A stretch of 64,000 nucleotides of DNA, from positions 6,908 to 70,907 of the IMG/VR virus record IMGVR_UViG_3300046171_000284, one strand, 5' to 3'. Positions 9,031 to 38,300 of this stretch are shown here, piece after piece (position 1 is the stretch's first letter; every line of letters begins with the position of its first letter). A program made the position numbers and the translations under genes. This DNA comes from a virus. Below the pieces are notes generated by a model. The model was not told the DNA's origin. It did not search any database and worked only from the letters and a program-made list of their open reading frames with translations.

Positions 9031-10972
9031 CTATTTTGTGTACATTTTTGAAATTTGATATTCCGCTCCTAACGGAAGTTTGTCGCCAATCCATTCAGGT
9101 GGCGTTGACATTATCTTTTTTATATCTTCCGCGCTATCCTTTGCATTTTCCTCATCAACGAGGACGATTGCTTCATCATGAACATGCATGACTACATCGT
9201 AACCTGCCTCATCTAATTTCAGCAAGCAGTTGCCAAAAACGGATCGCGCTTCTCTTTGAATTTGATTCTCAACAATCTTGGGACCATAGTACCAACTACG
9301 CTTGCGGTCACCCCTTCGAGTCTTGCAAGATCTGCCGTTAAGCTCAGGTCGGATGTTGAAATATTTTAGTTTTTCTCCGTTAAGTAATGGTAATTCAAGG
9401 ACATCCTCAGCAGTCTTGTACCTACGCTCATAGTCTTTCCACAGTCGGCAAAGTTTGCCATTTGAAGCTCTAAAATTCGACACCTGAGTATACGCATTTA
9501 CCCAATGCCTTTTTGTGCAATCGTCCAAGTCTTTCCACATAGCCAACTTGTCTTTCGCGTAGTCAGATATGAATGTTCCGAACTTAAACTCCTGTGCCTT
9601 GCTCGGTTCCTTATCCAAAATATCAAGCCTACCAAAATCGCGAACGGTTTCATAAAACCTAAACCATCCCGCACCATAGCCCAACGCAAGGACACGAACT
9701 TTCGCGAGTAAATACATGTCGGGATCTTCTTCCTTCAGGGGCGTACCCTCGTCCTCCCAACCCATTGTCGCAATCGCATGTGCCTCATACGGATTGTAAC
9801 CTTCCTTAAGCAGTTCAATCGTTTTAAAATCGCCAATGACTAAAAGCAAAAGCCGTGGTTCAATAGCACTAAGATCGCATATCACAAACACCTTACCTTT
9901 CGGAGCCTCAAGCATGTGCCGTAAATAAACTCCGTACTTCTCACCCCGTGGCATATTTTGTACATTAAAACCCGTGTCACCACTAAATCTAAGTGTCGAG
10001 TCAGCACCGCAATTACTTCATTGCCATAGCTGAGTCGAGTAATGCCGTCCTCCTCGTAACAACGAGCGATCATAGATTCTAATCGACTGATCTGAACATT
10101 GATTTTGCTGTAGTCAGCACATGCTTGGACGAAATCATGATCTTTGCCATACTTGGCAACCCATTCAGTAAAAGCCTCACTGCCTTGGGCTAGCGAGCCG
10201 GGCATCGGAACACCCGCTTTTTTACACTCGTCCGCCAAGCCTCGACGAGAAGTTGGCTTAAAATTCTGACGATACTTCGGATCGAACCGGTTTGTCCATT
10301 CAAGTTTCTGTAAAAAACCCCACCTAGTTTTATCTAAATCGTTCTTGCTTTCCTCCATGAGCTCGCGGTTTGCGGGAACTCCTTTCCAACCCATCATACG
10401 GGTCAAATGAGAAAGTTTAGCCTCATGCTCAGGAAAGTAATCTTTCAATCGCTGAAACAATTTCCAACACCACTTAGCATCGTCCTTGCCGTAAGCTAAA
10501 AGGTCACCCGCTTTACCCTCGCGGATAGCGTCATCCCATGTCCGACCTTTCATCCAATCTCGCATACCCTTGTCCATGTCGTGATCAAAGATTGCTTTTA
10601 ATGCACCCGCCAAACTTCTTGAAAAGTAATTGTAGGTAGCCATGTCCGCCGTACAATAAGTATCCATACCTAAAGCCCACTTGGGAGCAGTGCCTAACTC
10701 AACTGATCGGTGCAGTAGAGACCAATCAAATGACATATTGTGAGCGACTAAGCCGGAGGCGAAGTCCTTAGACGGTTAATTATATCCCAATCAAAGTCTT
10801 TTGGAGAGCCACCAAACCACAGTTCTTTGCCGTTTGGAAGCAGACCATAAACGGTAAGCATATACATACTGTCCTCGTTAAGTGCCTGAGCATACTGCCT
10901 AGCACCCATAGTCTGTATTGTAAGCTGATTGTTATATTCTGATTCATAATCAATAGCGAAAATATATTGCAT
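9031..10972 (-). CDS. polA: family A DNA polymerase, split into three ORFs by two frameshifts
   Basis: Exo I AIDYES (10748-10972); AHNMSFD and YGKDD exonuclease motifs (9882-10736 frame); motif A DLSAIEPR, motif B KVRVLALGYG, motif C VHDE (9031-9954). Confidence 0.9.
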
Positions 10973-10989
10973 AAATTTTTAAAAATTAT

Positions 10990-11032
10990 GCCCCACCACT
11001 AGGAACAATAACGAAAAACCTAGTGATGGGGC
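10990..11032 (-). terminator. hairpin, possible terminator between the SSB-like gene and polA
   Basis: GCCCCACCACTAGG...CCTAGTGATGGGGC stem followed by T-rich sequence on the minus strand. Confidence 0.5.
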
Positions 11033-11072
11033 GACCATCACACCAACACAGAGAAATTAACCGACAAATTCC

Positions 11073-11811
11073 TTAAGCCATGCACGTAAACTCAGCGGAA
11101 TGCTTTTTGCCCCTTTGGATTCTTGGGCAAGCAACGGTGTTACCATTGATCAACCTTTTCTCCGTAGAAAGTAAGAACGACCCTGTCTCCAATCCGGCAC
11201 GATAATACATACGCTTAGCGGTATTAATTGGTACTGCCGAAGCTGAGTAAGCCATACCCTTAATCTTCCATGTACAAAATGTGTAATTCGTACCTTCGAA
11301 TCATAAGGGAACCACTCATCGTCCTACACCTTCAGGCTGTTTATGCAGATTAACGCATCAGCACAAGGTTTGAAAGCTGGCGGTATTTTAAGACCATCTT
11401 CTGTACTCCAATCAGTCGTCCCGCCAAGCTGAAGAACTTCTTCTTTTTCTTAGCAATCCGAGGCAATTCGTCACCGCCAAACGGGACATTTTCCTCAAAT
11501 GTTTTTACTATGCTAAGAACTGTAATTTCACATGCCCTCCTCCATCTTTCACATCTCCATTTCTTTATCAAGACGAACGACCCTTTTGGATAAAGGTCGA
11601 CTAGGGACCCACACCTGAGCGATTTGAAGTTTTGGAAAGCAATATCACTTGCGTCAAACCCGTCATCACCATCGCGCAATGTAATTTCAGTTAGGAGTCC
11701 GATTAAACTCGACTTTTTCGTTCTTGAACTTCTCATCAAGCTATCCCACTCTTTTTCCAAGTCCATTTCTTCGTTATCTTTCTTCTTAGTTTTTTTAGCT
11801 TTTATTTTCAT
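11073..11811 (-). CDS. probable ssDNA-binding/annealing protein, broken by several frameshifts
   Basis: Fragments 11350-11811 and 11073-11255 read as one gene located between the nuclease and polA. Function is inferred from position only. Confidence 0.4.
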
Positions 11812-17472: not shown

Positions 17473-17853
17473 ATGACAATAAAAAATGAAATCGTGACTT
17501 GCAGGTTTTTGCCCAATGAAAAAACCCGCCTGTTCAATGTCGCAAAAAACACAAATGTATCCGTATCTGCACTAGCAAGAATTGCTATTAATGAATACCT
17601 TACCATCCATTCCGTAGATGAATCGGGTGAAAATTCAGAAACTTACAGTCAATCAATCAAAAGGACATACCAAGAATATATGATCAATGATTGGGCGGAG
17701 TCATCTGAGCAAGATGACCACAATGAAAAGTTTCTAAACAAGCTCATGCGAATGAGACAAAACTTAGATCTTCAGATCGACTACATCAAAAAAGAGGAGG
17801 ACTATAAGAGCTACAAATTGCTTCAAGATCTCGAAGATGAGGACGGTTTTTGA
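17473..17853 (+). CDS. ribbon-helix-helix-like regulator, candidate repressor
   Basis: IVTCRF...VSVSALARIAINEYL; divergent from the 17153-17341 gene. Confidence 0.6.
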   Translation: MTIKNEIVTCRFLPNEKTRLFNVAKNTNVSVSALARIAINEYLTIHSVDESGENSETYSQSIKRTYQEYMINDWAESSEQDDHNEKFLNKLMRMRQNLDLQIDYIKKEEDYKSYKLLQDLEDEDGF

Positions 17854-17857
17854 GGGT

Positions 17858-18139
17858 GTTACCCCTGTTACCCTTGCTGTTACCCTAGCGTTTTCAAGGA
17901 TAACAGGGTAACACCTATAAAATTGACCAATACGATTGGAGGTCTCAAAATAGTTACCCTTGGGTATAAAGGGTAACACCAAGGGTAACAGGTTTAACCA
18001 ACTGAATACCAAGGACATAACCCCAAACTGTTACCCTTGCACCCAATTTACATATATACCCAAATACGCGCAAAATTTTTATTTTTTTTTATAATAAGTG
18101 TAAATATATAATAATATACGCGCGCGCGAGAAGGGTAAC
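17858..18139. repeat. GTTACCC/GGGTAAC iteron cluster with AT-rich tract, putative replication origin
   Basis: Nine perfect heptamers (17858, 17867, 17879, 17906, 17953, 17971, 17983, 18030, 18133), AT-rich stretch about 18072-18118, and a CG dinucleotide run. Confidence 0.7.
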
Positions 18140-18141
18140 TA

Positions 18142-18591
18142 TTACTTGGAATTAAAGATTTTCCAATTGTCTTTGTACTTTTCGTACTGACCTGTAGATT
18201 TTTGGTTTTGCGGGTAGAAATAGATTTTCACTTTTTCCTCAAGACTGAGGCATGGTATCAGATACCATTGGTCGTAGGGATTAACATAACAGGCTATGAC
18301 ATCTACTTTGGTACAGTCGATTGGTGTCTTGGATGTTCCCGATCCGGCACATATTTGGTATCTCTCAGCACCGTTTGACATGATTTTGGTGTTGGTAGCC
18401 TTGATTTGGGTCTTTATCGTACCTCCCGCTCTGTTCATTACAACGCAGTCGATGGGTAGATACTCACCGATTGGGATGAGCACATCGTAGTTTCTCCTCA
18501 TCGCTTCAGTAAAAAATACCTGTTCTGCAAAATAGCCGAACCTTTTGGCACTCATTTTAAACTGATTATTCTTCAAAGTATCCCTTGCCAT
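18142..18591 (-). CDS. PD-(D/E)XK endonuclease (group I intron-associated type)
   Basis: GYFAEQVF...PIDCVV...TQIKAT...VDVIACY...WYLIP. Confidence 0.7.
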   Translation of the reverse strand: MARDTLKNNQFKMSAKRFGYFAEQVFFTEAMRRNYDVLIPIGEYLPIDCVVMNRAGGTIKTQIKATNTKIMSNGAERYQICAGSGTSKTPIDCTKVDVIACYVNPYDQWYLIPCLSLEEKVKIYFYPQNQKSTGQYEKYKDNWKIFNSK

Positions 18592-18682
18592 CAGTGTACT
18601 TGCTCCAATCGATTACAGACCCACTGCTGAGCACGACAATGACCACACCCGTATCCATGTTGTGGTAGATGTGAACATGCAC

Positions 18683-18922
18683 TTACTTTTTCTTCCTAGA
18701 GTAACTGCGGTTAGCTCTTTTGGAAATAACTGACAAGTTTTTAGAACGGTTGTCTTTGGTATTGCGATTCTTGTGGTGGACATCCTTACCGTCACCTTTA
18801 CTCGCTTTCCCCGCTTTCACCATCTTAGACCTAGCGGTATTCCGGTTTGCTCTTCGCTTTTTCTGTTTTGGCTTGGAATGGTAGTTTTTGTACTCGGACT
18901 TGTAGTTACGCTTTGTCGCCAT
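18683..18922 (-). CDS. small HNH endonuclease
   Basis: DGKDVHHKNRNTKDNRSKNL...NR. Confidence 0.75.
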   Translation of the reverse strand: MATKRNYKSEYKNYHSKPKQKKRRANRNTARSKMVKAGKASKGDGKDVHHKNRNTKDNRSKNLSVISKRANRSYSRKKK

Positions 18923-19152
18923 AGCACAACATACTAAACTCTATACATTTAAGGTCGCCACCGATTGCAAAACCCGACTATGTCGGCTCGCACAGGCTAC
19001 TACTATCATTCAGTATTTTAAAATCGGTAAGTCGGTAAGTCGATCTGTCGGCATATAGGTGTATCAATATGTCAGTAAATAAATAATGACCCCCCTTCTC
19101 CTTAACTTGATTTTTGTGAAAGCTTCAACTTAGAATAACTTAGCTAAATTTT

Positions 19153-19395
19153 ATGGCTAGGTTGAAGCTAAAACCTCCATCAAGTAGTCAAACGGAGTGC
19201 CAAAAGGCATTTGTCAGTAACCTGACACAAAGACTACAAAACGCATACCTAAACGGATTAGATATGCAAAGCAATATAGCTGACGACCGAATAGATCGAC
19301 TATCAAATAAAAACCAAAATGTTAAACCAAATATAGATTGGTATGTATTCATCTGTTTTTGGATAACTTATTTGTTAATCCTTTGGTTGTTATAG
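19153..19395 (+). CDS. hypothetical protein with C-terminal hydrophobic segment
   Basis: Ends WYVFICFWITYLLILWLL; start codon uncertain. Confidence 0.35.
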   Translation: MARLKLKPPSSSQTECQKAFVSNLTQRLQNAYLNGLDMQSNIADDRIDRLSNKNQNVKPNIDWYVFICFWITYLLILWLL

Positions 19396-19487
19396 TTAGT
19401 ATATTGCTAGGAGCGAGCCGAGTAAGACCACAGCAAGACTAGGCATCGGCTCGCTCTTCACTTTCATTAACCAATAAAAATAAAAAT

Positions 19488-19766
19488 ATGAATAGTGATA
19501 TAACTAAACAAGCAGTAAGAATCGCCAACGGAATTGAAGTTCTCAGTAAAAAAGAACTCAACGCAATCTTAGGTAAATTCATACTATTAACACTTGATCC
19601 ATACGAAGTTAAGTCAGCGATCAAAGAAGTTGCACAAGAAGAGTTCAAAAAAGAACACGGAAAAGTTGCAAAATCTTGGGTCGACCTAGCCGACAACATG
19701 GCAGAAAATACTGATGCTTCATTCGCAAGCGAAGTACTCAATTCACTGTGGCTCCAAAGAGCATAA
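19488..19766 (+). CDS. hypothetical protein
   Basis: 92-aa ORF preceded by a hairpin at about 19411-19456. Confidence 0.65.
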   Translation: MNSDITKQAVRIANGIEVLSKKELNAILGKFILLTLDPYEVKSAIKEVAQEEFKKEHGKVAKSWVDLADNMAENTDASFASEVLNSLWLQRA

Positions 19767-19843
19767 CCAAACCATAAAGGAGTTAGTCACGGCAATGCCG
19801 TGCAACACTTTCACTTTCCAAAGGGATTGATCATCCTAGAGGA

Positions 19844-20240
19844 GGAACAGACGCTCGTAAACAAGTCGTACAGAGGGCTTGCGAGCACAAGAACTATCAT
19901 TCCTAGCGGAAGGGCTTAAACCTCAAATGAGGAGGAGTCAGTGAGACATTCACTTATAGTTGGTAATCAGAAAATATACAGTATTGCACCATAATGCCTT
20001 GAGCAAGACGATGGTCTGCACTGAGATGTAATCACAATGTCCATATGGATTCAGGATTATAATCTAAGTTCTTAGCGGAACACAGTGGGTACAACTGTAG
20101 GCATAAACAATTGAACTTTTAAAAGTTCTGTCGGTTGTTACAGGTAAGCTCAGAGATGAGTTGTCCTGTCAGAATCCCTAGAGGATCTGTCGCATAATAT
20201 CGGTTGTTTTCTGATTTGTGGTATACATTCCACCTGTTCC
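19844..20240 (+). ncRNA. putative large structured non-coding RNA
   Basis: No ORF of 60 aa or more; closing helix GGAACAG/CTGTTCC; inner helix AATCAGAAAA/TTTTCTGATT; about ten local hairpins. Strand inferred from flanking genes and G-U pairs. Confidence 0.6.
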
Positions 20241-20390
20241 AAACTTTCGGTTCATCTAAACCAAAAAACAGACTGATTCATACAAATACTCGTATGGGTA
20301 GGGTAGGCGATTCTGCCCATACGAGACACTTTCTATGCAAAATACAAATAACAAAAAACTATTTGTTCTAATTGTAAAAGAAATGGGTCG

Positions 20391-21056
20391 TTGGAAAACA
20401 CTAGGGATTTTCGACAACTTAAAATCTATAAAGTTAGAACAAAGCAACATCCAAAATATATGCGAAATAATACAAACTCGTACAGTCCAACAGCGACACC
20501 TCTCCAAATTCTTGGAGAACTCGATGGTTCCAACTTGGGATCACAACCTAAAAATAAGAAACCGGTTGTTCGGAGGTGCAGATTGGAAAAATCAAATGTA
20601 TTCTTCAAAGACCAAAGGTTCGGACTCCTAACAGGATTAACAGTAGCAAGTAAAATACTACAGCATCATCTAGTATTTACATCGTCAAAATTCGGCGGAA
20701 CTTGGAAAGAACCCGGTGAATCTACTATCACAATCAAAATCGGAAAATGGATTGATGAAGGTAAGCTTCCAACAATTGTAGCAAATACAGGCGTTGCAGA
20801 TGCCGGAGTACAAGTACAAAAAGGATCTAGATTAGTAAATCTAGACACCGTACGAACAATGTTATTAAATCTCGAAAATTGGGATTTAAAACTAAATGTA
20901 CCTAATTGGGAAAAACATAAAGTACAACGAGGCAAAAGAAAGCATAAAGCTAAAGAGCATAACGAAATATTAGTCTACAGTAACGATGTCGATGTTCTTA
21001 CAAAAGAACATTGGATTATTAGATTAATAAAATTCTTCTTGCCTTGGACAAAATAA
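20391..21056 (+). CDS. hypothetical protein
   Basis: 221-aa ORF; start uncertain because it overlaps ORF 20335-20631. Confidence 0.55.
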   Translation: MENTRDFRQLKIYKVRTKQHPKYMRNNTNSYSPTATPLQILGELDGSNLGSQPKNKKPVVRRCRLEKSNVFFKDQRFGLLTGLTVASKILQHHLVFTSSKFGGTWKEPGESTITIKIGKWIDEGKLPTIVANTGVADAGVQVQKGSRLVNLDTVRTMLLNLENWDLKLNVPNWEKHKVQRGKRKHKAKEHNEILVYSNDVDVLTKEHWIIRLIKFFLPWTK

Positions 21057-21058
21057 TC

Positions 21059-21139
21059 ATGGCTTGGGATATAATAATTATTCTTTTTCCAATGTTACTA
21101 ATGTTTTGGTTCGTATGGAAAATCGGACAAATCGAATAA
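21059..21139 (+). CDS. 26-aa membrane peptide
   Basis: MAWDIIIILFPMLLMFWFVWKIGQIE, starting 2 nt after the previous stop. Confidence 0.5.
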   Translation: MAWDIIIILFPMLLMFWFVWKIGQIE

Positions 21140-21212
21140 ATTTCTCGATAACCGTAACAATAACGCCTTATGTACAATATCTTGTACATGCTAGCTCTTG
21201 GAGAAATCTAAC

Positions 21213-21425
21213 ATGACTGTTACTTTTCAATCAGGTGTCGCACAAATCACTCGTGATTTCGACGCAGGTACTACCTTGGGTCAAGCTTTGGAAGTCGTCC
21301 GTCCCGCACTCAATGTTGGTACTGTTTCCGCAGTATCCAACGGAGTTGAGATCGGACAAGGCGACGCAATTGATGGTTTCAACCATATTCAATTGCACGC
21401 CCAAAGCCACTCTAAGGCTGTATAA
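21213..21425 (+). CDS. ubiquitin-like (beta-grasp) protein
   Basis: 70 aa, GGAG RBS upstream; pattern TVTF...GTTLGQAL...VSNGVEI...I.G...IQL...SKAV; lies upstream of E2, E1 and JAB genes. Confidence 0.7.
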   Translation: MTVTFQSGVAQITRDFDAGTTLGQALEVVRPALNVGTVSAVSNGVEIGQGDAIDGFNHIQLHAQSHSKAV

Positions 21426-21598
21426 GCGTTAAATAAGAACTATCATTAGTAGTTCAACTGACCTCAATAAGAGGAACCACACTGCTTACTAAATCATAAT
21501 ATACAAGCAATCGGGTCTAAGTACTTGAACCCGCGAAATCAATACCTGAACCATCCTACATTATAGACAATGTAGATCATGATCAGACAACCAAATTT

Positions 21599-21645
21599 GA
21601 GCTAGCTATGGAGACTAAACCCTCCGTAGCTAGCTCTTTTTTTTT
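21599..21645 (+). terminator. intrinsic terminator after the Ubl gene
   Basis: GAGCTAGCTATGGAG / CTCCGTAGCTAGCTC 15-bp stem plus T9. Confidence 0.85.
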
Positions 21646-21675
21646 CAACCTAAATCATAATAAAACAAATCAAAT

Positions 21676-22500
21676 ATGACATATCATAATAAAGAAAAAT
21701 ATATAATCCAAGGTGACAACATCATCTTGGAAACAACAACCAAACAAATCGTATTAAATACAAGACTACAAGATGTAGTATTCGATCCAACAAATCGATT
21801 CTCAATAGATTCATCACTAAAAATGAATCCAATTACATCGCTGTCACAAGACAATTCAATCAGATACTTCGACTCAAACGAAATTCTATACAAAGTATCC
21901 AACATTGGTCAAAAAATATCGTTCAATTCACACGGAACACTGGCAAGTAACAACAGATGGACCCCAAGCTTCAGTTCACAATCCACAGATCCTCTATGGA
22001 AATGGGTAATAAAATCACGCTTCTCAACAACACCGGGATCAAACACAGGAATACTCAGAACATCATTCATATTAATTGAAATGTACAAAAAAGATAGCGG
22101 ACAGATACATTTAATGAATGGTAAACTCCTGTATGCAGAAGTAGACGACAAAGATTCAACTATCATCCATACTTTCGCACCACCGTTTCCAAATGTATAC
22201 GAAAACGGTCTGATATGCCTTGGTAGTCTAATCGAAACCGATGATTCAAAATTAGATCTACAAAATCCTAAAGTAATGACAGCAAAAATAATGTCAGACG
22301 GATGGAATCAAGATCTATACAGACCACAATATAATTGGGTAGAAAAAGGTGAATTAACACAAGAATTCACCTTACCGACTAATTTAAAAGACTCCAAAAT
22401 AACTCATGGATTCTTAAGAACAACAGATAAAAACGATCTGACACTAGTCACCCCAATGTTACACACAAACATTCTAAATGTATTCGGAGATCAATACTAA
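21676..22500 (+). CDS. prokaryotic E2/UBC-like conjugating enzyme
   Basis: APPFPNVYENGLICLG matches the E2 (H/F)PN-x4-G-x-IC active-site motif; Cys codon at 22216. Confidence 0.7.
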   Translation: MTYHNKEKYIIQGDNIILETTTKQIVLNTRLQDVVFDPTNRFSIDSSLKMNPITSLSQDNSIRYFDSNEILYKVSNIGQKISFNSHGTLASNNRWTPSFSSQSTDPLWKWVIKSRFSTTPGSNTGILRTSFILIEMYKKDSGQIHLMNGKLLYAEVDDKDSTIIHTFAPPFPNVYENGLICLGSLIETDDSKLDLQNPKVMTAKIMSDGWNQDLYRPQYNWVEKGELTQEFTLPTNLKDSKITHGFLRTTDKNDLTLVTPMLHTNILNVFGDQY

Positions 22501-22814
22501 TGGACTTAGAAAGTAAAATAATAACTGAAATAGAAAAAGCAGAAGACGACAATAAACTACTGTTTTTCAGATCAGGAATAGGTCAACACTTCAAAAACAT
22601 CAACGCTTGTTATGCAGTGTTGCTAATCAGACTATCACAACATCATAACTCAGTAGCAAGAATGTTAGTAGAAACTAAATCTGTCGATCAACCAATACAC
22701 AAAGATGACCCACTTATTGTACTCATGAAAAGTATAGAAATAAAACTTGATGAAATAGAAACAGACTTAAAAAACGCACTAATATTCGCAAAAAAATTAA
22801 ATAAAGAAAACTAA
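22500..22814 (+). CDS. hypothetical helical protein in the Ubl cassette
   Basis: TAATG overlaps with both the E2 and E1 genes. Confidence 0.65.
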   Translation: MDLESKIITEIEKAEDDNKLLFFRSGIGQHFKNINACYAVLLIRLSQHHNSVARMLVETKSVDQPIHKDDPLIVLMKSIEIKLDEIETDLKNALIFAKKLNKEN

Positions 22815-23494
22815 TGAAAATTAATATCATCGGACTCGGAGGAGTCGGCTTAAAAATACTCAGAGAATTAGTAGAATCTAACTTCGCCATTACAAGCATG
22901 AAGCTTTGGGATGGAGATGTAATAGAAGCACGCAACTTAGAGCGTCAAATCTACAGAACTGACCATATTGGCATGTCAAAATCAGAAGCATCAAAAGACA
23001 TGTACTGCAAAGAAAATGTTGTTGGATTTCCATGCGAAACATTCGGCGACATAAATCTAATTACTCTTAGAGAAAATCAAAAAAATATCTGCAATGATGA
23101 TGTTACATTCATCGCTACAGATAACAATGAATCAAGAGTATTACTACTCAACAATTGGAAAATAATGTCAAAAAACCATGTGCTAATCAGTTCAGCGAAT
23201 GCTACAGCAGACGAAGGAATTGGCATTGGTTCAACCGCATGGATCTACATGAAAGAATGGTACAACGATCCAATCAAAGACCCGATCATTAGAAACAATT
23301 TAGAATCTAATAATCATGTCAATATCGGCAGACCATGCTCAGAAACAAGCGAACCGCAAACAGCATTAGCTAACAGCGGTGCGTCTATCCGTGCAGTCGA
23401 ACTACTATCACTATGGAAACATGCAAGCAGTACTTCAATTGCTGACCATCTACCAATTGAACACTCACTATTCTACAAACAAACAACTATCTAA
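22814..23494 (+). CDS. ThiF/E1-like adenylating enzyme
   Basis: IIGLGGVG, WDGDVIEARNLERQ, ATDNNESR, and candidate catalytic Cys in RPCSETSEPQTALAN. Confidence 0.85.
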   Translation: MKINIIGLGGVGLKILRELVESNFAITSMKLWDGDVIEARNLERQIYRTDHIGMSKSEASKDMYCKENVVGFPCETFGDINLITLRENQKNICNDDVTFIATDNNESRVLLLNNWKIMSKNHVLISSANATADEGIGIGSTAWIYMKEWYNDPIKDPIIRNNLESNNHVNIGRPCSETSEPQTALANSGASIRAVELLSLWKHASSTSIADHLPIEHSLFYKQTTI

Positions 23495-24308: not shown

Positions 24309-25423
24309 AAACAATCATACATAAAAATAAAGTATTCCAAGAAGTAGAAACTGATTTCTACTCATCATGGAAAGAAACAATAGTGCCTGAAAAAGCACCA
24401 CGACTCAGTTGGAAAAAAGCAAAAATAACTCTAGATCAATGGAACGACATCAAGAACATTTGCGAATACACCAATAACAAACACAGCTCAGAATGCTTAA
24501 TCAGATTATACTTCAACTGCCAAAAAGACGAATGGGCAATGCTCATGCATCCTCAAGAAATGAATGGCATGACTGTTGATGATGACCTAGACACCGACTT
24601 AATACTATCATTAGGTGAAGGTTGGGCAGAAGCAGGTAGTGTACACCATCACTGTAGCTCAGGTGCATTTCAATCATCAACAGATGAATCAGATGAAATG
24701 CAAGCATCAGGACTACACATTACTATTGGTAAAATTGGATCTGATGAATACGAAATAGATGCACGATTCAGAGAAGGTGAATCATTCACAACTCCCAATC
24801 TATCTACATTCTTCGAAGTACCTAATTGGTTAGTCAATGATGTGCCGGATAAATTCCAATATGAAATATTCGAATACTTACTGTGCTCAAAAGGTAATAG
24901 TGATTTAGCAAAAGGTGATTGGATTGCACAATGCAAAGAAAAACCAAAATTAAATACAGTACACTCATACTCTCAAAGAGCAAGATACAGTGCATACGGT
25001 AAAAGCTCTTATCAAGTTACGCCCTACACTAACCACACAATACATAAAATACCTGACGCTGATCAAAAAGAACTATCATTAAATGATGCGACAGAATTAG
25101 ATGATTATGAACACGCACAAATGATTAAAGATGCTTGGAATGAACAAGAAAAAAAGATGTTCAATGTTATTGAAGATGTAGCATTACAGTATGATCTCGG
25201 TACTTGCGATGTACTCAGCATAATCGACGATCCTCTAAAAGAAATGGACGGTATATTAGTCAAAGCGTGGCAAGACATAAGAATGTTGGTAAAAGATACA
25301 CCAATGAATCTAACTGAAATAAGAAAGTTCATATCTAATGATCAAGACGATGTAGAACTAGTGCTTACAGTTGCACATGAATACAGTCCATATAACTACG
25401 GAACAACATATCCAATTGTCTAA
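24305..25423 (+). CDS. JAB/MPN+ metallo-isopeptidase
   Basis: SECL (Glu) followed by GSVHHHCSSGAFQSSTD = HxH-x7-S-x2-D, then GLHITIG. Confidence 0.85.
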   Translation: MKTIIHKNKVFQEVETDFYSSWKETIVPEKAPRLSWKKAKITLDQWNDIKNICEYTNNKHSSECLIRLYFNCQKDEWAMLMHPQEMNGMTVDDDLDTDLILSLGEGWAEAGSVHHHCSSGAFQSSTDESDEMQASGLHITIGKIGSDEYEIDARFREGESFTTPNLSTFFEVPNWLVNDVPDKFQYEIFEYLLCSKGNSDLAKGDWIAQCKEKPKLNTVHSYSQRARYSAYGKSSYQVTPYTNHTIHKIPDADQKELSLNDATELDDYEHAQMIKDAWNEQEKKMFNVIEDVALQYDLGTCDVLSIIDDPLKEMDGILVKAWQDIRMLVKDTPMNLTEIRKFISNDQDDVELVLTVAHEYSPYNYGTTYPIV

Positions 25424-28421: not shown

Positions 28422-30176
28422 GTGTCAGACGCTGAACAGCTTCAAGACCTAATCAGGGTAGACCCTGAGCTTTGGTTTACGACCTTTGCCGTAATCAAGG
28501 ATAAACGGGGCAAGACAATTAGCCCAAAAGCCAACACCTTACAAAAAAGGATGTTTGCACATTACCGAAAATGCCAAATCGAACAAAAACCGTGCAAGAT
28601 GATAATATTAAAGCCTCGTCAAAAGGGAGCAAGCACTTGCGCCCAAGCACTGACATACCACCACATGAGGAAGCACCCCGACCTAGCGGGGTCGCTGATG
28701 GGGGACATATCGGGGACGAGCGACAAAGTATTCGAGATTTATCGGAGATACGCAGAGAACGACAGCTTTCCTTGGGACGATACAGGAACAAACCACGAAA
28801 ATGGGGGAAACCTCGTAGATCAGATTACCCTAACAAGCAAAAGTGTGTATGGAAAAGAGACCGCCGGATCAAAAAACGCGGGTCGAAGTGGGACAGTTCA
28901 AGTTGGTAATATGACTGAGGTTGCGTTTTGGACAATGCAAGGTGAAAGAGACCCTGCACTTGGCTATTTGCAATCTTTATACGATGGGGACAATGTATCA
29001 TTAGTTGTAGCCGACTCCACTCCAAATGGTCCCGTTGGATGGTTTTACCGCACATGGGTACAGGATAACGAATGGGCTAAGATATTTGCCTCATGGTGGG
29101 AGTTTGAGGATTCCGAGATACCTTTTGTTTCTGATGAACAGCTTCAGGATTTTAAGGATACTTTAACTGCCGATGAGATATCCGAGATGGAAAGATTTGA
29201 TGTCACATGGGAGCAGATGCATTGGAGAAGACGCACTCTTCAGGACAAATGCAATGGTGATGTAGCTAAGTTTAGACAGGAATACCCGTCAGATCCCGAA
29301 GAATGTTTCCTTATGTCATCCCGCCCACGCTTTCATGTGGAAAATATTAAAGCCATGCTCGATTCCTCGAAGAAGCAGACTCCTCAAATCGGTGTCATGA
29401 CATTTCAAGACGAGTCAAGAAAGGTCGCTAGTTTCCTACCCGACCGTGGCGGTCTGTGGAAAGTTTACGAAGAACCTGAATATGACTCAAAATACTTGAT
29501 TTCTGTGGATACATGCACAGGTGAAGATCAACAGACTCAGGGATTAGCCTCTGATCCTGATTGGCACAGTGCACAGGTATGGAAAGCACCCTATGAAGAT
29601 TGGCATGGCAATTGGCATGTTGCCAAATTAGTTGCCGTACACCATAGCCGATTGGATATTGGTGTGTTAGCTGAGGAAGTTGCATCCGCATCTGCGTGGT
29701 ATGGCAAAGCATTTACCGTCCCCGAAGTCAATAATTCGGGATTAGCCTTAGTTAAGTACCTATTGGACTTGGGCGTACCTGTATATCGTAGGAGAAAAAC
29801 GATTGATTCTATGGGAATTGTGGAAAAGAGCTTCGGTTGGACGACTGACAAATTGACCCGAAAAACGATAATAGACCATTTAGCTTCGGAAATTATCGAA
29901 TTTAATGTGGATATCCCTGATGAAGGCATCATGCAAGAGTTGAAAACCTTTGTCATAAATGAGAAGGGTAAGCCTGAAGGTGCTCCCGGTCATCATGACG
30001 ATCATGTATTGGCATGTGCCATTGCAGTTTACAATATTGACAGTGCATCTTCGTACAAGATGCCAAAAAAGAAACGGATTACTAATCGTATGCTTCGAAA
30101 GAACCCAAGTTTGATGTGTCCTGATGGATTTATGCGTGTCCCATTAAAGGAGTACATGCGTAATAAGCGTAGGTAG
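28422..30176 (+). CDS. terL: terminase large subunit
   Basis: ILKPRQKGAST, STPNG, FRQEYP, ISVD, PEVNNSG, HDDHVLACAIA. Confidence 0.9.
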   Translation: MSDAEQLQDLIRVDPELWFTTFAVIKDKRGKTISPKANTLQKRMFAHYRKCQIEQKPCKMIILKPRQKGASTCAQALTYHHMRKHPDLAGSLMGDISGTSDKVFEIYRRYAENDSFPWDDTGTNHENGGNLVDQITLTSKSVYGKETAGSKNAGRSGTVQVGNMTEVAFWTMQGERDPALGYLQSLYDGDNVSLVVADSTPNGPVGWFYRTWVQDNEWAKIFASWWEFEDSEIPFVSDEQLQDFKDTLTADEISEMERFDVTWEQMHWRRRTLQDKCNGDVAKFRQEYPSDPEECFLMSSRPRFHVENIKAMLDSSKKQTPQIGVMTFQDESRKVASFLPDRGGLWKVYEEPEYDSKYLISVDTCTGEDQQTQGLASDPDWHSAQVWKAPYEDWHGNWHVAKLVAVHHSRLDIGVLAEEVASASAWYGKAFTVPEVNNSGLALVKYLLDLGVPVYRRRKTIDSMGIVEKSFGWTTDKLTRKTIIDHLASEIIEFNVDIPDEGIMQELKTFVINEKGKPEGAPGHHDDHVLACAIAVYNIDSASSYKMPKKKRITNRMLRKNPSLMCPDGFMRVPLKEYMRNKRR

Positions 30177-32311: not shown

Positions 32312-35300
32312 ATGTCACTTTTCGAAGAAGAGGTGTTCCGTGATCCCTTAGCCAAGGGCGATGATAAAGTTTTCGATCTTGGTTTTGATCTTGGCGACCC
32401 TCCTAAAAACACTTACGGCATAGGACAGCCTCAACAGCCCCAAATAGGTGAATATGAACCTACATACGATCCTGTAGAAGGACCACAGCCTGACCCTGCC
32501 AACGAGCCCGTTTATCGGGACTATTTAGCTTTTAAGGATAATTTAGGCAGAGTTGGTTCCGAGCTTACTGATTTTAATTACCGTAGTTCGTCCTCCAACA
32601 AAAGGTATGATTCTTTCTTTGATGAGAAACTACCCTCGATTTACTCTGACCTTACGGGCTATGAAATGCCTGATAATGTCAGTAAAGCAAATCGTAAGAC
32701 CTTATTAGAAGACCTAGAAAATCAGTATTCTGATGCCGAAAGAAAAGTCTTAAAAGGTAATGAGAATTTCCTTGGATTAGGTGAAGATGAAGCATTCGAA
32801 CAGGCTAAAGCATTTGCCACACCTGAGCGTAAAAAGCTCATTGGCAGTTTAAGAAAAGAGCATGACAGACTAGAGCTTGAACGCGACGAATATGCTCGGA
32901 GAGCATATGAGAAAAGAATGGAAAGAGACCGTATGCTTGAGCAAAGGTCGCAGGTTCCACATATTATCCGTGCTGAAGCAGAGGAATGGGCTAAGCGTGA
33001 GCGTAGTTTACTAGCATCAGGTACTAAAAAGAACAAACTTTCATATGAGCAGATCCAACAAAAGCTAGATGCCCGATACCGTTCGGTTGATCCGTTTGGC
33101 GGTATGCTTGACAAGTCTGAACTTAGTTCCTCTGAGCGTGTTGAAGCTAGAAAAGCGTTAGAACTACTATCATGGTCTAAGAAAGAGACTGATTCCTTTA
33201 GAGGTCAGGGCGGGATTGTTTCCAATAATGGATTCGTGAACGGTTATCCTGTTGGTTTAACGGGTGCTGAGAGGGAGGCTTTGGAGGTTGCCGACCTTAG
33301 AAAAGCAGGGATTACCACTTACAAAGGCAAACCGATTGAGGAAGCCTTGGAAGCCCTTGGCGGTCAGGAAAAAGTTGAGGCTTTAACAGCTATTTCTAGT
33401 ACCCTGAAGCTACACACTGCATACACAAACGCAGGTGTTGAGTTATGGAGTAAATGGAATCAGGAAGGACACGAAGAAAGACAGGCTGAGTATGATATGG
33501 CACAATCCGCAGTCCAACGGGCGTTGGGTAACGCGGGTGCGATGGGTCTTACAAATGACATAGTTAGACGAAACCCTTCTGCTTGGTGGTTTGACCACAT
33601 GTTAAATGCATCTAAGCGTGGATGGGATCGCACTGACGGCACTCCCCGAAACATTGCTCGTATCATAGCAGGTGACGGAGGTATTGACCGATCCGCATTA
33701 TCTAAAGTTGTAGAAGCATCTCAGCTTGAAAGACAGAGTCCACGATCTAAGGACTACGATAATTACATGAACGCCCTTCACAACAAGGGTGGTTCCAAAG
33801 GTTTTTACGATGCTTTCTTAACATTGACTGACGATAAGCAATGGAAGGGCAGTGCGATGACCGTGCTGACCGAAATGATGGTCGAATCTCTTGCCTCATT
33901 AATTCCATTAGTTGCGAACAACATTAAGGATGCAGGTATCCCTGTTCTTGGTGCGTCTCTTCTTGAATCATTTTTAACCAAAAAACCAAATAAAACGCTT
34001 TTAAAAATACTCGGCAGAAATGCCGGACTCGCGATAAAGGGTTCGTATGGTGTCGCATCTTTTCAATTAGGATACATTGGTAAGCTCTTGGAGGACATGA
34101 GCGAATTGGGAGTTGATATAAACAACCCCGATCACATGTTATCTGCATGGAATAACCCCGAAATTAATGAGAGACTGCGTAGACGGGCTCGAAATTATGC
34201 GGGTGGCTTAGCGTTCTTTGAAATGTTGGGTGTGGGCTTAATGGGTCGTGCTAGTAAACTGCTCAATGGTCCCACGAAGTTCTTAGGCAAGACAAGTCTT
34301 GGTAAGTATGCACTTGCCCCTGCTATCAAATCCACTGCCGAACTAGGCTTGGACATGGGTACAGGTATGGCATCTGAATATGCAGGTTTTGTCCTATCAA
34401 AAGACCCCGGTGAAAAGACTCCATACGATGACATTCTCATAGAAGGCGCGGCTGAATTAGGACCCGGTATTGTATCCACAGGCATAAACTTCGCCACTCC
34501 TCAGCTTGGGGATATGTGGAAGTCTAGCACCCCTAGAAAACCACAGGATATTGTTGATGATGGCACAGGCAATGAGACTCAGGTTCTAACCGACCCCGTT
34601 TCTGACCCTAATCGTTCAGGTATCGTCACATCTACACAGACCTACAAAGGCATGGAGTTTGAAGCTACAAGCTATTCCAATCTTGAAGCTTTCGATGATA
34701 ATTTCGTAACTGACATAAAAAACGCCACAGGTGTCGAGCTTGATGCCAACGACTCTCTTGCGGTTAAAGCTTTTGTAGCCAATGGAATATTTCGCCCTGA
34801 CTCAGCTATTTCTCCTGACAAAGTCGATTTTTTCTTTGGCAGTCTGCCCGATCAAGCCCCCGGTCGCTACATTAATGAGGGTAACGGTCGTGTTCTAATC
34901 GCAATCGACCCTGTACGAGCAAAAGAGCTTGGATTTACAGTAGCAGAAACATTTATACATGAGGGCGGTCACTTCGCTGAGGATTTCATTCTTGGAGAGG
35001 GCGAGGTTCAGGGTTTTTGGGATGAACTTACTGACGAGCAAAAGAAAAGAAATGCATTAGAATATGCCACGCTTGCTCGCCCTGATGGACCTGCTACCGA
35101 TGTCACTCAGTTAAATGAAAACGAAAAAGCAGTTTATGAGTATTTACTAGATAACGAAAAGAAAAACCGATCCGAATGGTTGACTCTTCAAATTGCCCGT
35201 GTTCTTCGTGGCGATGTTGACAAAGAAGGTTTTCCTCCCGGTCTTTGGTCAGGTATTCAAAAAATAATCATGTTCTTCCGCTCATCTATCGAAAAGATGT

Positions 35301-38300
35301 TCGGATCTGAAGACCTTGCCCCTAATAGCAAAGAAGCAAAGGCTGAAATGGATCAGTACCTTTATGAGGTATTGATGGAAGGTAAAAAAGCTAGAAGTGG
35401 TACAGAAGCAGTAGCATCCCCTCAGCCAACAGCAACAGCCCCTGAGCCAACCATTATTTCGGACGGATTTGATGTCGATTCGGAGACAGGCGATTTAACA
35501 CCTGTTGACCCTACTAAACCCAATGAATCCGCTCGACAGCAAGGCATTAATATTACTAGGGAAGGTGACGAAGCAAAATTCTTACTCTCCCCTAGACAAC
35601 AAGATGCGATCAAAGTTCGTATTAAAAGAGGGGAAGACCCTGAGAAAATAATAAAATGGGCGGTTAAAAATACTAAAAAGCCCGAAGGCGTGGTCAGATC
35701 CTATGTCGAATCGGTACTAAAAGAAGGCGGTATCCAAAAACCAAAAGGACCTGCCGTTGCCGAAAAACCGAAAAAAGCGTCTGACCCTAAGCCTGAGAGC
35801 GAGCCCGTACAATCTGAGCCCAAACCCAAAGCGGAACCCCAAGCTGAGACTGAGCCCCAAGCTGAGCCCCAAGCGGAGACACCCAAATTCAAACCGCTCG
35901 GAGATGCTGAGAAAAGAGCAATAGCTAAGAATGTAAGGGAGGGCATGAAAAAAGGTCTTTCCCCCAAGAGTATTACTGACGATCTATTAAAAAAGGACAC
36001 TAAAAATCAATACGACCCGAAAGAAGTCCGTGCCTATGTAATCAGAGTTGTAGATTACGATAAGAAAAAAGCATCAGAAACTCCCATCGCCCCTGACCCT
36101 CCGAAAGAAACTTTTAAACCGTTTACAGAAGAAACTAAAAAGAAACTAGCCCCTAGAATTAGGGATGGTATTAAAAAAGGTTTTTCCGCTAGTCAGATTG
36201 CCGATGTTTTTATTAAGCAGAATAAGGGCAAATATGACCCGAAGGAAATTAAGGCTTATATTCAAAGGGTCATAGATTACGACAAGAACAAATCCGAGCC
36301 TAAGACCGAGCCCAAGCCCAAGCCCAAGCCCAAGCCCAAGCCCAAGGACGAAATTCCTGAAATCGCACCTGATGACCCTGAGTTTATAAGACTATTTAAG
36401 CTTGAAGAGAAGGCTATCGAAGAGGCACGAGCAAATTATGATTTGTGGCAAGACGGAAAAATAACCGATGAGGAGATGGATGCGTCTCAGGCTAGAGCGA
36501 AAGAAGCAGAGAAAGCTACTTACGACTATATAATGTCGAAGAAAAATAAGCCTAAAGACGAAGGCGTAGATTTAGGTAAAGCCACAGTTAAGTTTACAAA
36601 AGCCGAGCTTCAGGAATTGGTTGATGGCGGTATGACTGTAGCCGAAGCCAAGAAAACACTTATAGCAAAGTATGCAAAAGACGCAAAGGTAACAAAGACC
36701 GAGCCTAAGCCTAAGATTGACATACAGAAATTTTACGATCTTTACGATCAGGCATTCGTCAATGCCAATGCTCCTAGTTTCAGTAACGAGGGTAAGCTTT
36801 CAAAATCACAGGTCATTCAAAAAGTTCTCATGGATAATATTGAGAACATACCTGCGGAAGACTTTGCTTATGTCGAGCAAGCTTTAATCAAGCGTTCCCA
36901 ACAAGGTCAGCAAGAATTTGATCTATCTGCACCCGGTACTATCATACCTACTTTAGGAGATAAAAAAGCTCAGCAAGTAAGAGGTTCAGTTCGTGGCGTA
37001 CTAAACTTTTTAGAAGAGTTTAATGTATCCGTAGAAGAGGCAGACAATTTCTTAGTGGATCTATCCGCCAAGAAACTAGTAGTTAATTTCGATCCTAAAA
37101 ATGTAGATAAGTTATCTGACGCATTAGCACAGTCCGTAGCTACATTAATCTCAGGCACTGATCTGTACAGACAGTTTTCCTACGATGTTGTCGGCAGGGA
37201 TGCCAAAAAGTCGAAAGCATTTTACGAAGAACAAACAAAAAGGTTTCAAAATTTTTACAAAGAAAACTTTTCTGACACTCCCTACAACGAGTGGATAACC
37301 ACTAAAGACGCTAGAACCACATGGTATAATTTCGGTAGGCAAGTCTACAAAGACATGATTGTCGGCGTTTTAGGCGGTAACATATTGGAGAAAATATCCA
37401 AGGATATTCAGTTACCAAAATCTTATATTCAAAAAATTAAGGATTTTGTAAAAGGTTTATTTTCCAAACTTTCAGGCGTAAATACTGAGGAACTTTCCAA
37501 GTACTTAAGGGGTGTCACAAAAGATGCTTTTTTGGGAAATACTAGTCCTTACACAATCAAAGGTTCTCAGATCCGTAAGGACATATCTTACGATAATATT
37601 TACAATACTGACTACGCCTTAAATGCGTTCAAACACGCGGGTGATGTAGTTAAGAAACTCACAAAGGATAGCAGATTTGCACTGACAGGTAGTTTAGCAC
37701 TTGCCTCAAAAGGGCTCGTTTACCGACCTAAAGGCGAACCTGTCCACGACTTAGACTACGCATTTGATGGGTCGCAAGAAGAGTTAGTTAAGGCAATGGA
37801 GAAACTCTTACCCAATGCACTTCCCCGCCGTGCTTTTAAATCTAGTTCAGGAGTACTGAACGCACCTTACATCATCCCCGAAGAAGGATTCAGAGTTGAG
37901 GAAGTTTCGAATGGAAAGCTCAAATGGTACGACCTTAAGACAGGTAAAGAGGTTAAAAGCGGGGCTTATGTGACCTCCGATTTTTTCATTGGAGCGGTTA
38001 CAGACGAGGAGACTTTTAACTATAATTGGAAAACTAGAAACGGTAGTTTAGTGCCAATTAAGTTTACTAGACCGGGAGTAATTTTCGATGCCAAACTTGG
38101 TTACTCCCGAAAGAAAGACATTTTTGATTATCAGCAGTACACCGAGGATAGGGATAAATTATTAAGTGCTAAAGACAGAGAAAACAAAGTCGGCAATCTT
38201 TTAAAAAGGTCTACCTTTTCCGACCTATCTGCCCCCGGCGGAACGCCCATACGAGAAGAATTCGGGGTAGGCGGTTTAGCTAACATAAGAGGGTCTGACT

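Follow-up and report, generated by a model that had tools for sequence, protein, structure and literature searches.

The Locus and the Fold of Its RNA

The stretch of DNA analyzed here, hereafter the window, comprises 64,000 nucleotides (nt), bases 6908-70907 of the IMG/VR virus record IMGVR_UViG_3300046171_000284, a record of 70,907 bp rated 100% complete, and comes from a tailed, uncultured, marine phage. In the early region of this genome, about 1.7 kb from the point where genes switch to divergent orientation, a gene-free gap of 568 nt (19767-20334) separates an open reading frame (ORF) of 92 amino acids (aa) from one of 98 aa, and most of the gap is taken up by a densely folded element (19840-20245). 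As a kind, the element is a large, ornate non-coding RNA (ncRNA): long, non-coding, built of many helices, more stable than shuffled sequences and specific to one strand. That it is a real, expressed, structured ncRNA is highly probable in our judgment, and the RNA is an orphan, new to the databases that were searched. The longest plus-strand ORF that touches the element has only 39 aa and a GTG start. The initial annotation, made from the letters alone, had described this as the longest gene-free gap of the window, which is plausible: the only longer ORF-poor stretch, 10737-11349, carries ATG ORFs of 74 and 60 aa in the same orientation as their neighbors.

That annotation had also proposed a nested fold, and the strings on which it drew all lie where it had placed them, with GGAACAG at 19844-19850 facing CTGTTCC at 20234-20240, and AATCAGAAAA at 19965 facing TTTTCTGATT at 20207. 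Eleven of its twelve pairings recur in the minimum free energy (MFE) structure calculated with ViennaRNA for both 19840-20245 and 19815-20245, while the twelfth, CAGT..CCAT/ATGG..CACTG, is displaced by other pairings and survives as an alternative only. Folded as plus-strand RNA, the element reaches -128.2 kcal/mol versus -99.3 ± 5.3 for dinucleotide shuffles, which are the reference for all z-scores given here (z -5.44; 0 of 100 shuffles as good). The minus-strand RNA scores z -2.18, with 2 of 100 shuffles as good, and the element folded as DNA scores z -3.57. For the whole gap (19770-20330), the values are z -7.60 on the plus strand (0/100) and z -2.64 on the minus strand (1/100). The folding z-score, suggested at the outset as a check, is therefore remarkable and specific to the plus strand; this asymmetry between strands arises because 11 of the 136 MFE pairs are G-U, in line with the G-U pairs that had been noticed on the plus strand. 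The helices and domains of the RNA, together with the features around it, are collected in Table 1. Short direct repeats are also present, with TCGGTTGTT occurring twice within the element and CCTAGAGGA likewise twice.

Table 1. Positions of the RNA, its parts and the surrounding features in the window.
Feature	Positions	Strand	Description
Hairpin A + CACUUUC	19412..19465	+	Upstream of the 92-aa ORF; hairpin 19412-19456, motif 19459
92-aa ORF	19488-19766	+	Upstream of the RNA; no known family
Hairpin C	19788..19802	+	Stem of 6 bp, loop of 3 nt; directly before the RNA
Tandem motif CACUUUC-ACUUUCC	19806..19819	+	X5 contig begins inside, at 19817
RNA as seen in nature	19817..20245	+	Extent of the longest metatranscriptome contig; 5' limit uncertain, 19815-19829
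CYUAGMGGA copy 1, CCUAGAGGA	19835..19843	+	5' leader; competes with another leader hairpin
Closing helix P1, GGAACAG/CUGUUCC	19844-19850 with 20234-20240	+	7 bp; mean pair probability 1.00
5' hairpin H1	19853..19886	+	GCUCG/CGAGC and CAAGUC/GGCUUG, 8-nt loop GUACAGAG; probabilities 1.00, 0.83
Junction domain	19892..19961	+	Closed by AACUAU/AUAGUU; three hairpin arms
Junction-domain arms		+	UUCC-UAGC-GGAA; GGCUU..CCUC/GAGG..GAGUC; AGUGA/UCACU (MFE)
CYUAGMGGA copy 2, CCUAGCGGA	19902..19910	+	Hairpin, UAGC loop
12-bp long-range helix, 5' strand AAUCAGAAAAUA	19965..19976	+	Pairs with 20205-20216; mean probability 0.97
Central multi-branch domain	19979..20202	+	Enclosed by the 12-bp long-range helix
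Central-domain helices			AUGCCU/AGGCAU; GUUCU-UAGC-GGAAC; ACAGU/ACUGU; AACAAUUGA../..UCGGUUGUU
Central-domain helices, further			ACAGG..AGCUCA-GAGA-UGAGUU..CCUGU; UCC-CUAGA-GGA arm
CYUAGMGGA copy 3, CUUAGCGGA	20071..20079	+	Hairpin, UAGC loop
CYUAGMGGA copy 4, CCUAGAGGA	20177..20185	+	Hairpin, CUAGA loop
12-bp long-range helix, 3' strand UGUUUUCUGAUU	20205..20216	+
3' hairpin GUGG-UAUACAUU-CCAC	20218..20233	+	Directly inside P1; probability 0.99
Motif ACUUUC	20243..20248	+	2 nt after P1; X5 contig stops inside, at 20245
Hairpin B CUCGUAUGGG../..CCCAUACGAG + CACUUUC	20289..20333	+	Hairpin 20289-20325, motif 20327
98-aa ORF	20335-20631	+	Downstream of the RNA; conserved right neighbor; KEMGRW...PxWDH strings kept
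First canonical intrinsic terminator downstream	21599-21645	+	15-bp stem + T9
Large terminase	28422-30176		Conventional type
5551-aa ORF	32312-48967		Polyvalent protein; LPD38 domain and Dda-like SF1 helicase domain

Presence of the RNA in Metatranscriptomes

A word index places a 701-nt query (19700-20400), of which the element makes up 0.61, in 20 sequencing runs from 16 studies, all marine or seawater metagenomes. Eight of these runs (X5-X7, X10 and X17-X20), from five studies, are metatranscriptomes and hold 0.26-0.59 of the sampled words; the DNA runs that hold the element (X1-X4, X8, X9 and X11-X16) have shares of 0.30-1.00. Contigs were placed on 18800-21300 for three RNA runs, each from a different study, and for the DNA run X4. 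The RNA contig of X5 covers 19817-20245 with 0 differences (444-nt record, depth 41); that of X17 covers 19828-20205 with 11 differences and one gap and is directly followed by Illumina adapter letters; and that of X20 covers 19829-20055 and carries a variant, 19875 G>T, in the loop of H1. Apart from a 35-nt local match in X17, the only other cover of 18800-21300 in these RNA runs is 19122-19288 in X5, although regions of this interval that lack RNA-contig cover are not thereby shown to be silent, whereas contigs of the DNA run X4 fall in 29 of the 30 bins of the same interval. Thus, the RNA contigs of three studies are essentially confined to the element, 19817-20245, which answers the early proposal to look for it in metatranscriptomes.

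Several details of these contigs deserve separate mention. The adapter after position 20205 in X17 is presumably of the type that trails the sense strand in dUTP TruSeq libraries, and would then mean that the RNA is in plus sense. In X5, 15 extra letters follow position 20245; they correspond to 20180-20194 and begin inside a repeated hairpin (described below), at the U|A step of the loop in its copy 4. One reading of this tail is that reverse transcriptase switched templates from a broken 5' end at 20180 to a true 3' end at 20245, and this reading would fit 20245 as a real end; the tail, seen in a single contig, may also be an artefact. The second covered piece of X5 (19122-19288) is 167 nt long, has a depth of 15.6 and lies in the region of an 80-aa ORF with two minus-strand terminator-like hairpins.

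A Natural Variant and Possible Selection on the Fold

The contig of X17 is the only diverged natural variant at hand, and 10 of its 11 differences are listed. Eight of these ten substitutions fall on positions paired in the MFE structure, and seven of the eight retain a standard pair. Two of them, 19901 U>C and 19910 A>G, make up a double compensatory change from U-A to C-G in the junction domain; at 19935 and 20077, G-U becomes A-U, at 19940 A-U becomes G-U, at 20102 C-G becomes U-G, and at 20111 U-G becomes C-G. When substitutions of the same types were placed at random, one broken pair at most resulted in 4,306 of 100,000 trials (P=0.043). On covariation, also proposed early as a check, this single variant shows seven of eight substituted paired positions that stay paired and one pair that has changed on both sides. 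Overall, the X17 contig gives supportive but thin backing to selection on the structure.

Known Families and Homologue Searches

Rfam 15 includes GOLLD, ROOL, HEARO, OLE, raiA, introns, RNase P, 6S, known ribozymes and riboswitches, and at the gathering threshold, none of its 4227 families matches anywhere in the 64-kb window. In E-value mode, 19600-20500 gives four chance-level matches (E 1.4-9; 12.3-14.1 bits versus cut-offs of 35-57), and the only one overlapping the element is a human long non-coding RNA model without base pairs (E=9). The covariance-model search hence agrees with the initial annotation, which could assign the element to no family; its mention of GOLLD and ROOL holds as an analogy and fails as membership. 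Nor did any of the outcomes that it had named as speaking against a new RNA come about: RNA contigs are present, the folding z-score is remarkable and Rfam holds no strong match. ARAGORN finds 0 tRNA or tmRNA genes in the window.

Searches for relatives by sequence were similarly empty. The 701-nt query had no match by blastn (distant mode) among 50,697 phage records, the gap had none by blastn and nhmmer among 80 terminase-linked loci, and the comparison of the element with the syntenic loci L084-L092 gave only matches of at most 19 nt with E of at least 0.2. BLAST against 20 related virus records returned four short matches (E 0.05-0.25) and no homologue; the one match that was inspected lies inside a 1005-aa open frame. 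Exact-pattern scans returned 0 and 0 matches in the viral_contigs collection and 0 in genome_contigs. A three-block motif scan of viral_contigs yielded seven matches, which were discarded, as all seven are tandem copies of the motif in long open frames of unrelated contigs. A metagenome scan with a profile of the 98-aa protein led to five loci, none with an alignable RNA. For comparison, PMC10690425 describes 10,006 viral candidate RNAs, with motifs averaging 67 nt, from a pipeline that required at least three distinct IMG/VR matches.

Two likenesses to H1 were noted in passing. A 350-nt RNA contig of X17 (depth 240) has 35 nt in common with H1 (19857-19891), with 5 differences; a rough estimate allows a chance match in a run of that size, so the contig is not counted as a homologue, and its loose end has no match in viral_contigs. 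Locus L092 (222-242) has CAAGTCG...GCTTGCGAGCACA in common with H1 at E 0.22, which is suggestive only. Both likenesses may reflect chance or a shared module.

A Repeated Hairpin and a Boundary Motif

A short motif, CYUAGMGGA, recurs within the RNA. The window holds six copies of CYTAGMGGA on both strands, where 1.46 are expected and 0 of 100 shuffles reach six, and four of the six lie in the RNA, all on its plus strand (Table 1). Each copy can form a short stem around a UAGM loop. In the X17 variant, the compensatory change at 19901/19910 affects the stem of copy 2 and leaves the motif core unchanged, and 20077 G>A affects the GGA in copy 3, where it improves the pair. A hairpin repeated in this manner on one RNA suggests several binding sites for one partner.

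A second motif marks the borders of the RNA. CACTTTC follows a hairpin three times, only in this region of the window, and ACTTTC, which occurs 28 times on the plus strand of the 64 kb, is found five times within 875 nt (19459-20333), each time after a hairpin or after P1. Hairpin A and its CACUUUC are the conserved left border of a variable locus. Hairpin B and its CACUUUC finish 1 nt short of the start codon (ATG) of the 98-aa gene and lie outside the RNA contigs; the loop string of hairpin B, GGGUAGGCG, is also found in the related locus L088. Related loci keep the arrangement of a hairpin followed by CUUUCC with stems that vary freely, and a hairpin with (C)ACUUUC or CUUUCC recurs at unit boundaries in the phage group (the window; L088 2213-2275; L090/L091/L092). 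This combination could be a processing site, a promoter or an antitermination signal.

The first of these functions has a precedent in the core preference of RNase E, RN|WUU, which PMC5222698 reports as mapped in Salmonella; both CAC|UUUC (in 19806-19819) and AAC|UUUC (in 20243-20248) agree with it. Cuts are accordingly predicted after 19814, 2 nt from the start of the X5 contig, and after 20244, 1 nt from its end. At hairpins A, B and C and at the 3' end of the RNA (19412-19465, 19788-19819, 20218-20250 and 20289-20333), no intrinsic terminator with a run of at least five T was found, and a weak test found no sigma-70-like site near 19780-19830. The placement of the motifs, the ends of X5 and the lack of a terminator or promoter site of the RNA's own together favor one early transcript that is cut at the motifs. 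Processing at ACUUUC is plausible, and we put it at somewhat short of an even chance.

The Locus in Related Phages

The 98-aa protein is rare: a search of 1.84 billion representatives gave seven proteins at E<=0.001. Its homologues are encoded in the IMG/VR records G001 and G003 and in the metagenome contigs L088-L092, where the identity is 32-72%. Upstream gaps were folded for six loci, namely the window and five relatives, and in all six the syntenic gap before the 98-aa gene or its homologue is structured on the sense strand, with z-scores from -4.1 to -7.6 (window -7.60; G001 -7.12; L091 -6.45; L088 -5.22, from 20 shuffles only; G003 -4.27; L092 -4.08). The antisense folds are weak in the three that were computed (-2.64 in the window, -1.87 and -2.16).

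None of the relatives' gaps aligns with the RNA of the window, including that of L088, whose protein is 72% identical. In L088, similarity is limited to the left border, where 132 nt are 76% identical to 19335-19466 of the window, and to the last hairpin's loop, and about 190 nt of other structured sequence replace the 92-aa ORF and the RNA. Among the G001-type relatives L090, L091 and L092, the flanks are ~73-96% identical in pairwise blastn segments, whereas the cores cannot be aligned. In each of these three loci (L090:2150-2505, L091:180-530 and L092:125-466), a hairpin follows a conserved CTAGCTAG, and its stem is wholly different from one to the next. L088-L092 have 0 Rfam matches at E<=1. 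As the gaps are structured but unalignable between well-aligned flanks, the locus is a conserved site for a variable structured RNA.

The Phage and the Gene Neighborhood

IMG/VR holds 124 relatives of the large terminase, at 74-100% identity, the closest terminase of a cultured phage is only 25% identical, and the runs with the element are marine; for these reasons, the phage group is taken to be abundant, uncultured and marine. A replication module (pieces of a family A polymerase, a helicase, DUF2800 and a dNMP kinase) lies on the minus strand at ~5-16 kb. Between this module and the plus-strand genes, GTTACCC/GGGTAAC repeats are clustered in both orientations at 17850-18140, with an AT-rich run and (CG)4 after them, and this cluster marks the point of the switch. 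GGGTAAC has 22 sites in the window, where 5.7 are expected, and nine of them fall in 17858-18139; the region is likely a replication origin or a regulatory iteron region.

Pfam and PHROG searches gave no informative match for the 98-aa protein, and a scan of viral_contigs with the flanking proteins found no relatives of the 92-aa ORF. A 221-aa TTG ORF (20391-21056) overlaps the 98-aa gene in a different frame and has no relatives in the same scan; since homologues exist only for the 98-aa frame, the start of the next gene, which continues after 20631, probably lies downstream of 20391. On the plus strand of 18550-21500, no terminator-like site was found, and the unit that contains the RNA is likely transcribed as far as the terminator at 21599-21645. 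Three plus-strand copies of the 13-mer AAGAACTATCATT are present (19889-19901, 21435-21447 and 25068-25080), and the one at 21435 begins another non-coding structured stretch (21426-21675), which that terminator closes. The neighboring early genes at 21676-23494 show a weak Prok-E2_D match (E 1e-4, below cut-off) and a ThiF/E1-like domain (E 9e-13); from these domain matches, they may be a phage ubiquitin-like conjugation pair. Farther downstream, the terminase is followed by a 696-aa ORF without a known family, and the 5551-aa ORF lies between that ORF and the portal.

Interpretation and Rival Explanations

Taken together, these observations can be read as one proposal, namely that 19817-20245 on the plus strand encodes a discrete, stable ncRNA of ~415-430 nt that is processed and acts in trans as a scaffold or decoy; we regard this joint reading as evenly balanced between right and wrong. 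The RNA would be transcribed inside an early plus-strand polycistronic unit and would have no terminator of its own. An endonuclease, RNase E-like, would cut at (C)AC|UUUC after the structured elements on both sides and so free the RNA, yielding three pieces: the 92-aa messenger RNA (mRNA), the RNA itself and a nearly leaderless 98-aa mRNA. The closed, compact fold would let the RNA outlast the flanking mRNA, and its four YC-UAGM-GR hairpins would let it act in trans as a multivalent protein-binding scaffold or decoy. This last part, the trans-acting role through protein binding, is tentative and, by itself, rather unlikely. Bolder still is the idea that the phage group keeps an early RNA-cassette locus, from hairpin A and its CACUUUC to the 98-aa gene, filled in each lineage with a different, unalignable, highly structured RNA, the 430-nt version of the window being processed and directed, with its four UAGM-loop hairpins, against a host factor as a multivalent decoy or a scaffold that assembles itself; we consider it improbable. 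If true, the locus would be an RNA counterpart of hypervariable islands of anti-defense proteins, shaped by an arms race.

A number of observations weigh against the proposal. As for the fold, a wider control, in which 425 overlapping 300-nt windows were folded on both strands and the energy regressed on G+C, gives the two windows that lie within the element ranks 4 and 9 on the plus strand and not the first, the strongest window being 17851 in the iteron/AT-rich region; the same two windows are much weaker on the minus strand (-1.64 and -0.28 standard deviations), and the scan understates the element because it cuts the long-range helices. The covariation comes from one variant with a modest P, and that variant also breaks one pair of the central domain (A·C, at 20104) and has a 1-nt deletion within a helix, at 20110. 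The RNA data are assembled contigs, which cannot fix ends, strand or level. Only the X5 contig reaches the motifs at both ends, whereas those of X17 and X20 start at 19828 and 19829, 11-12 nt past the motif and 13-14 nt past the predicted cut. Both ACUUUC and CYUAGMGGA were defined after looking, so that their statistics are inflated, and TAGMGGA alone is not enriched across the window (19 versus 13.8 expected). No partner protein was found, and the 98-aa neighbor has no informative family. No alignable homologue came from any collection searched. Finally, the longest complement to the RNA in the phage is 12 nt, as chance predicts, and the absence of an antisense target beyond chance neither supports nor excludes a role in trans.

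The main rival is that the same RNA is inert or acts in cis, as a structured leader or spacer between cistrons of the early operon, whose fold protects the neighboring mRNAs or tunes the 98-aa gene, and which is seen because it is slow to decay. It would account for the lack of a terminator of the RNA's own, for the structured gap with a strong hairpin directly before the start codon in every 98-aa homologue, and for gap sequences that differ freely, as expected if only some structure is needed. It accounts less well for RNA contigs that end 90 nt short of the 98-aa gene and exclude hairpin B, for internal helices retained in the X17 variant, and for a closed architecture of ~12 hairpins with a repeated motif, which exceeds the needs of a protective stem-loop; we therefore think it possible, though unlikely. 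A different account makes the same RNA its own transcription unit, starting near 19817, with the hairpin and CACTTTC as a phage promoter or a terminator-promoter cassette. The motif does precede each of three units (the 92-aa ORF, the RNA and the 98-aa ORF), L088 retains hairpin A with CACTTTC, and G001-type loci retain a hairpin with CCTTTCC/TCTTTCCCC and freely varying stems; the arrangement may also resemble the stem-loop cassettes of T4 discussed below. A promoter leaves the extra motif copy at the 3' end of the RNA unexplained, however, and the region near 19780-19830 has no sigma-70-like site; a search of the record for a T7-type RNA polymerase was empty, but its controls were silent too, and the 5551-aa protein yielded no polymerase domain. 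We consider this account improbable.

The remaining alternatives dispense with a new RNA altogether and are much less probable. That the hairpins form in DNA, as part of a replication origin or a recombination or packaging site, would suit the early position near the divergent switch, the direct repeats TCGGTTGTT and CCTAGAGGA and the z-score of the DNA fold (-3.57); it is very improbable given a strand-asymmetric fold with G-U pairs, RNA contigs that cover exactly the element, and a much better origin candidate at 17858-18139 with iterons and an AT-rich run, the latter absent from the element. Equally remote is descent from a family already described (GOLLD, ROOL, HEARO, group I/II intron, RNase P RNA, tmRNA, 6S or a riboswitch leader), with divergence too great for the searches; the likeness to such RNAs is in size and ornateness only: none of the 4227 Rfam families matches at gathering, the four matches at E<=10 are at chance level, ARAGORN finds nothing, and L088-L092 have no match at E<=1. 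The least probable, verging on the negligible, is a chance structure in a non-functional spacer with RNA contigs derived from contaminating DNA. DNA can occur in RNA libraries, and the element is an orphan, but 0 of 100 shuffles reach its fold, contaminating DNA should extend over the flanks, as it does in X4, yet three studies cover the element only, and word shares of 0.49-0.59 in RNA runs agree with the element's share of the 701-nt query.

A processed ncRNA remains our preferred reading. The RNA itself is unusual in that several ocean studies already supply environmental RNA sequences of it, and in occupying a locus that carries other structured RNAs in relatives. If the processing and repeated-hairpin readings are true, the locus offers a tractable case of how phages make and use stable ncRNAs early in infection, and the sequence, being short, lends itself to in vitro studies of structure and binding even with no host at hand.

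Comparison with Known Systems

Several known RNAs and phage loci bear a partial likeness to the one described here. The pRNA of phi29 is also a phage-encoded, abundant, structured ncRNA, but its length is far smaller, and it is found in phi29-like phages, which have a packaging ATPase of their own; unlike it, the present RNA lies in a hypervariable early locus of a phage with a conventional large terminase. The promoter-early stem-loop (PeSL) cassettes of T4 sit in hyperplastic regions and, similarly, the locus here repeats a stem-loop with a short motif between small early units, next to a segment that varies among relatives. It differs from PeSL cassettes in that its content is a non-coding structured RNA, not small ORFs, and in that the motif is also found at the 3' end of the RNA.

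CsrB/RsmZ and adenovirus VA RNA are multivalent protein-sponge or decoy RNAs, and the phage RNA resembles them in displaying several copies of a short hairpin, here four of CYUAGMGGA, on one structured molecule. CsrA, however, recognizes ANGGA in hairpin loops, whereas the four repeated hairpins have UAGM loops with the GGA in the 3' half of their stems; a sponge of the CsrB/RsmZ type, with loop-exposed GGA, was therefore set aside, and there is no homology. With RNase E-matured RNAs, such as ArcZ, RprA and small RNAs derived from 3' untranslated regions, the RNA has in common that it is a structured fragment with putative single-stranded cut sites of the RN|WUU type (PMC5222698). Those of the ArcZ/RprA type are Hfq-bound regulators of 50-250 nt, unlike the present RNA, which is ~430 nt, phage-encoded and shows no detected seed or target, and whose cleavage is predicted from where a single contig begins and ends.

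GOLLD and ROOL are often phage-borne and, like OLE and raiA, are longer than the phage RNA described here. In contrast to these four, our RNA has no Rfam match and no nearby tRNA genes, and it belongs to one phage lineage and not to a broad family. GOLLD and ROOL form homo-oligomeric assemblies, as described in PMC12286853. Like GOLLD, ROOL, OLE and raiA, the RNA of this marine phage is a long, many-helix ncRNA with a terminal closing helix, is present as RNA and has no known function. Large structured RNAs of this sort are rare, and several have proved remarkable.

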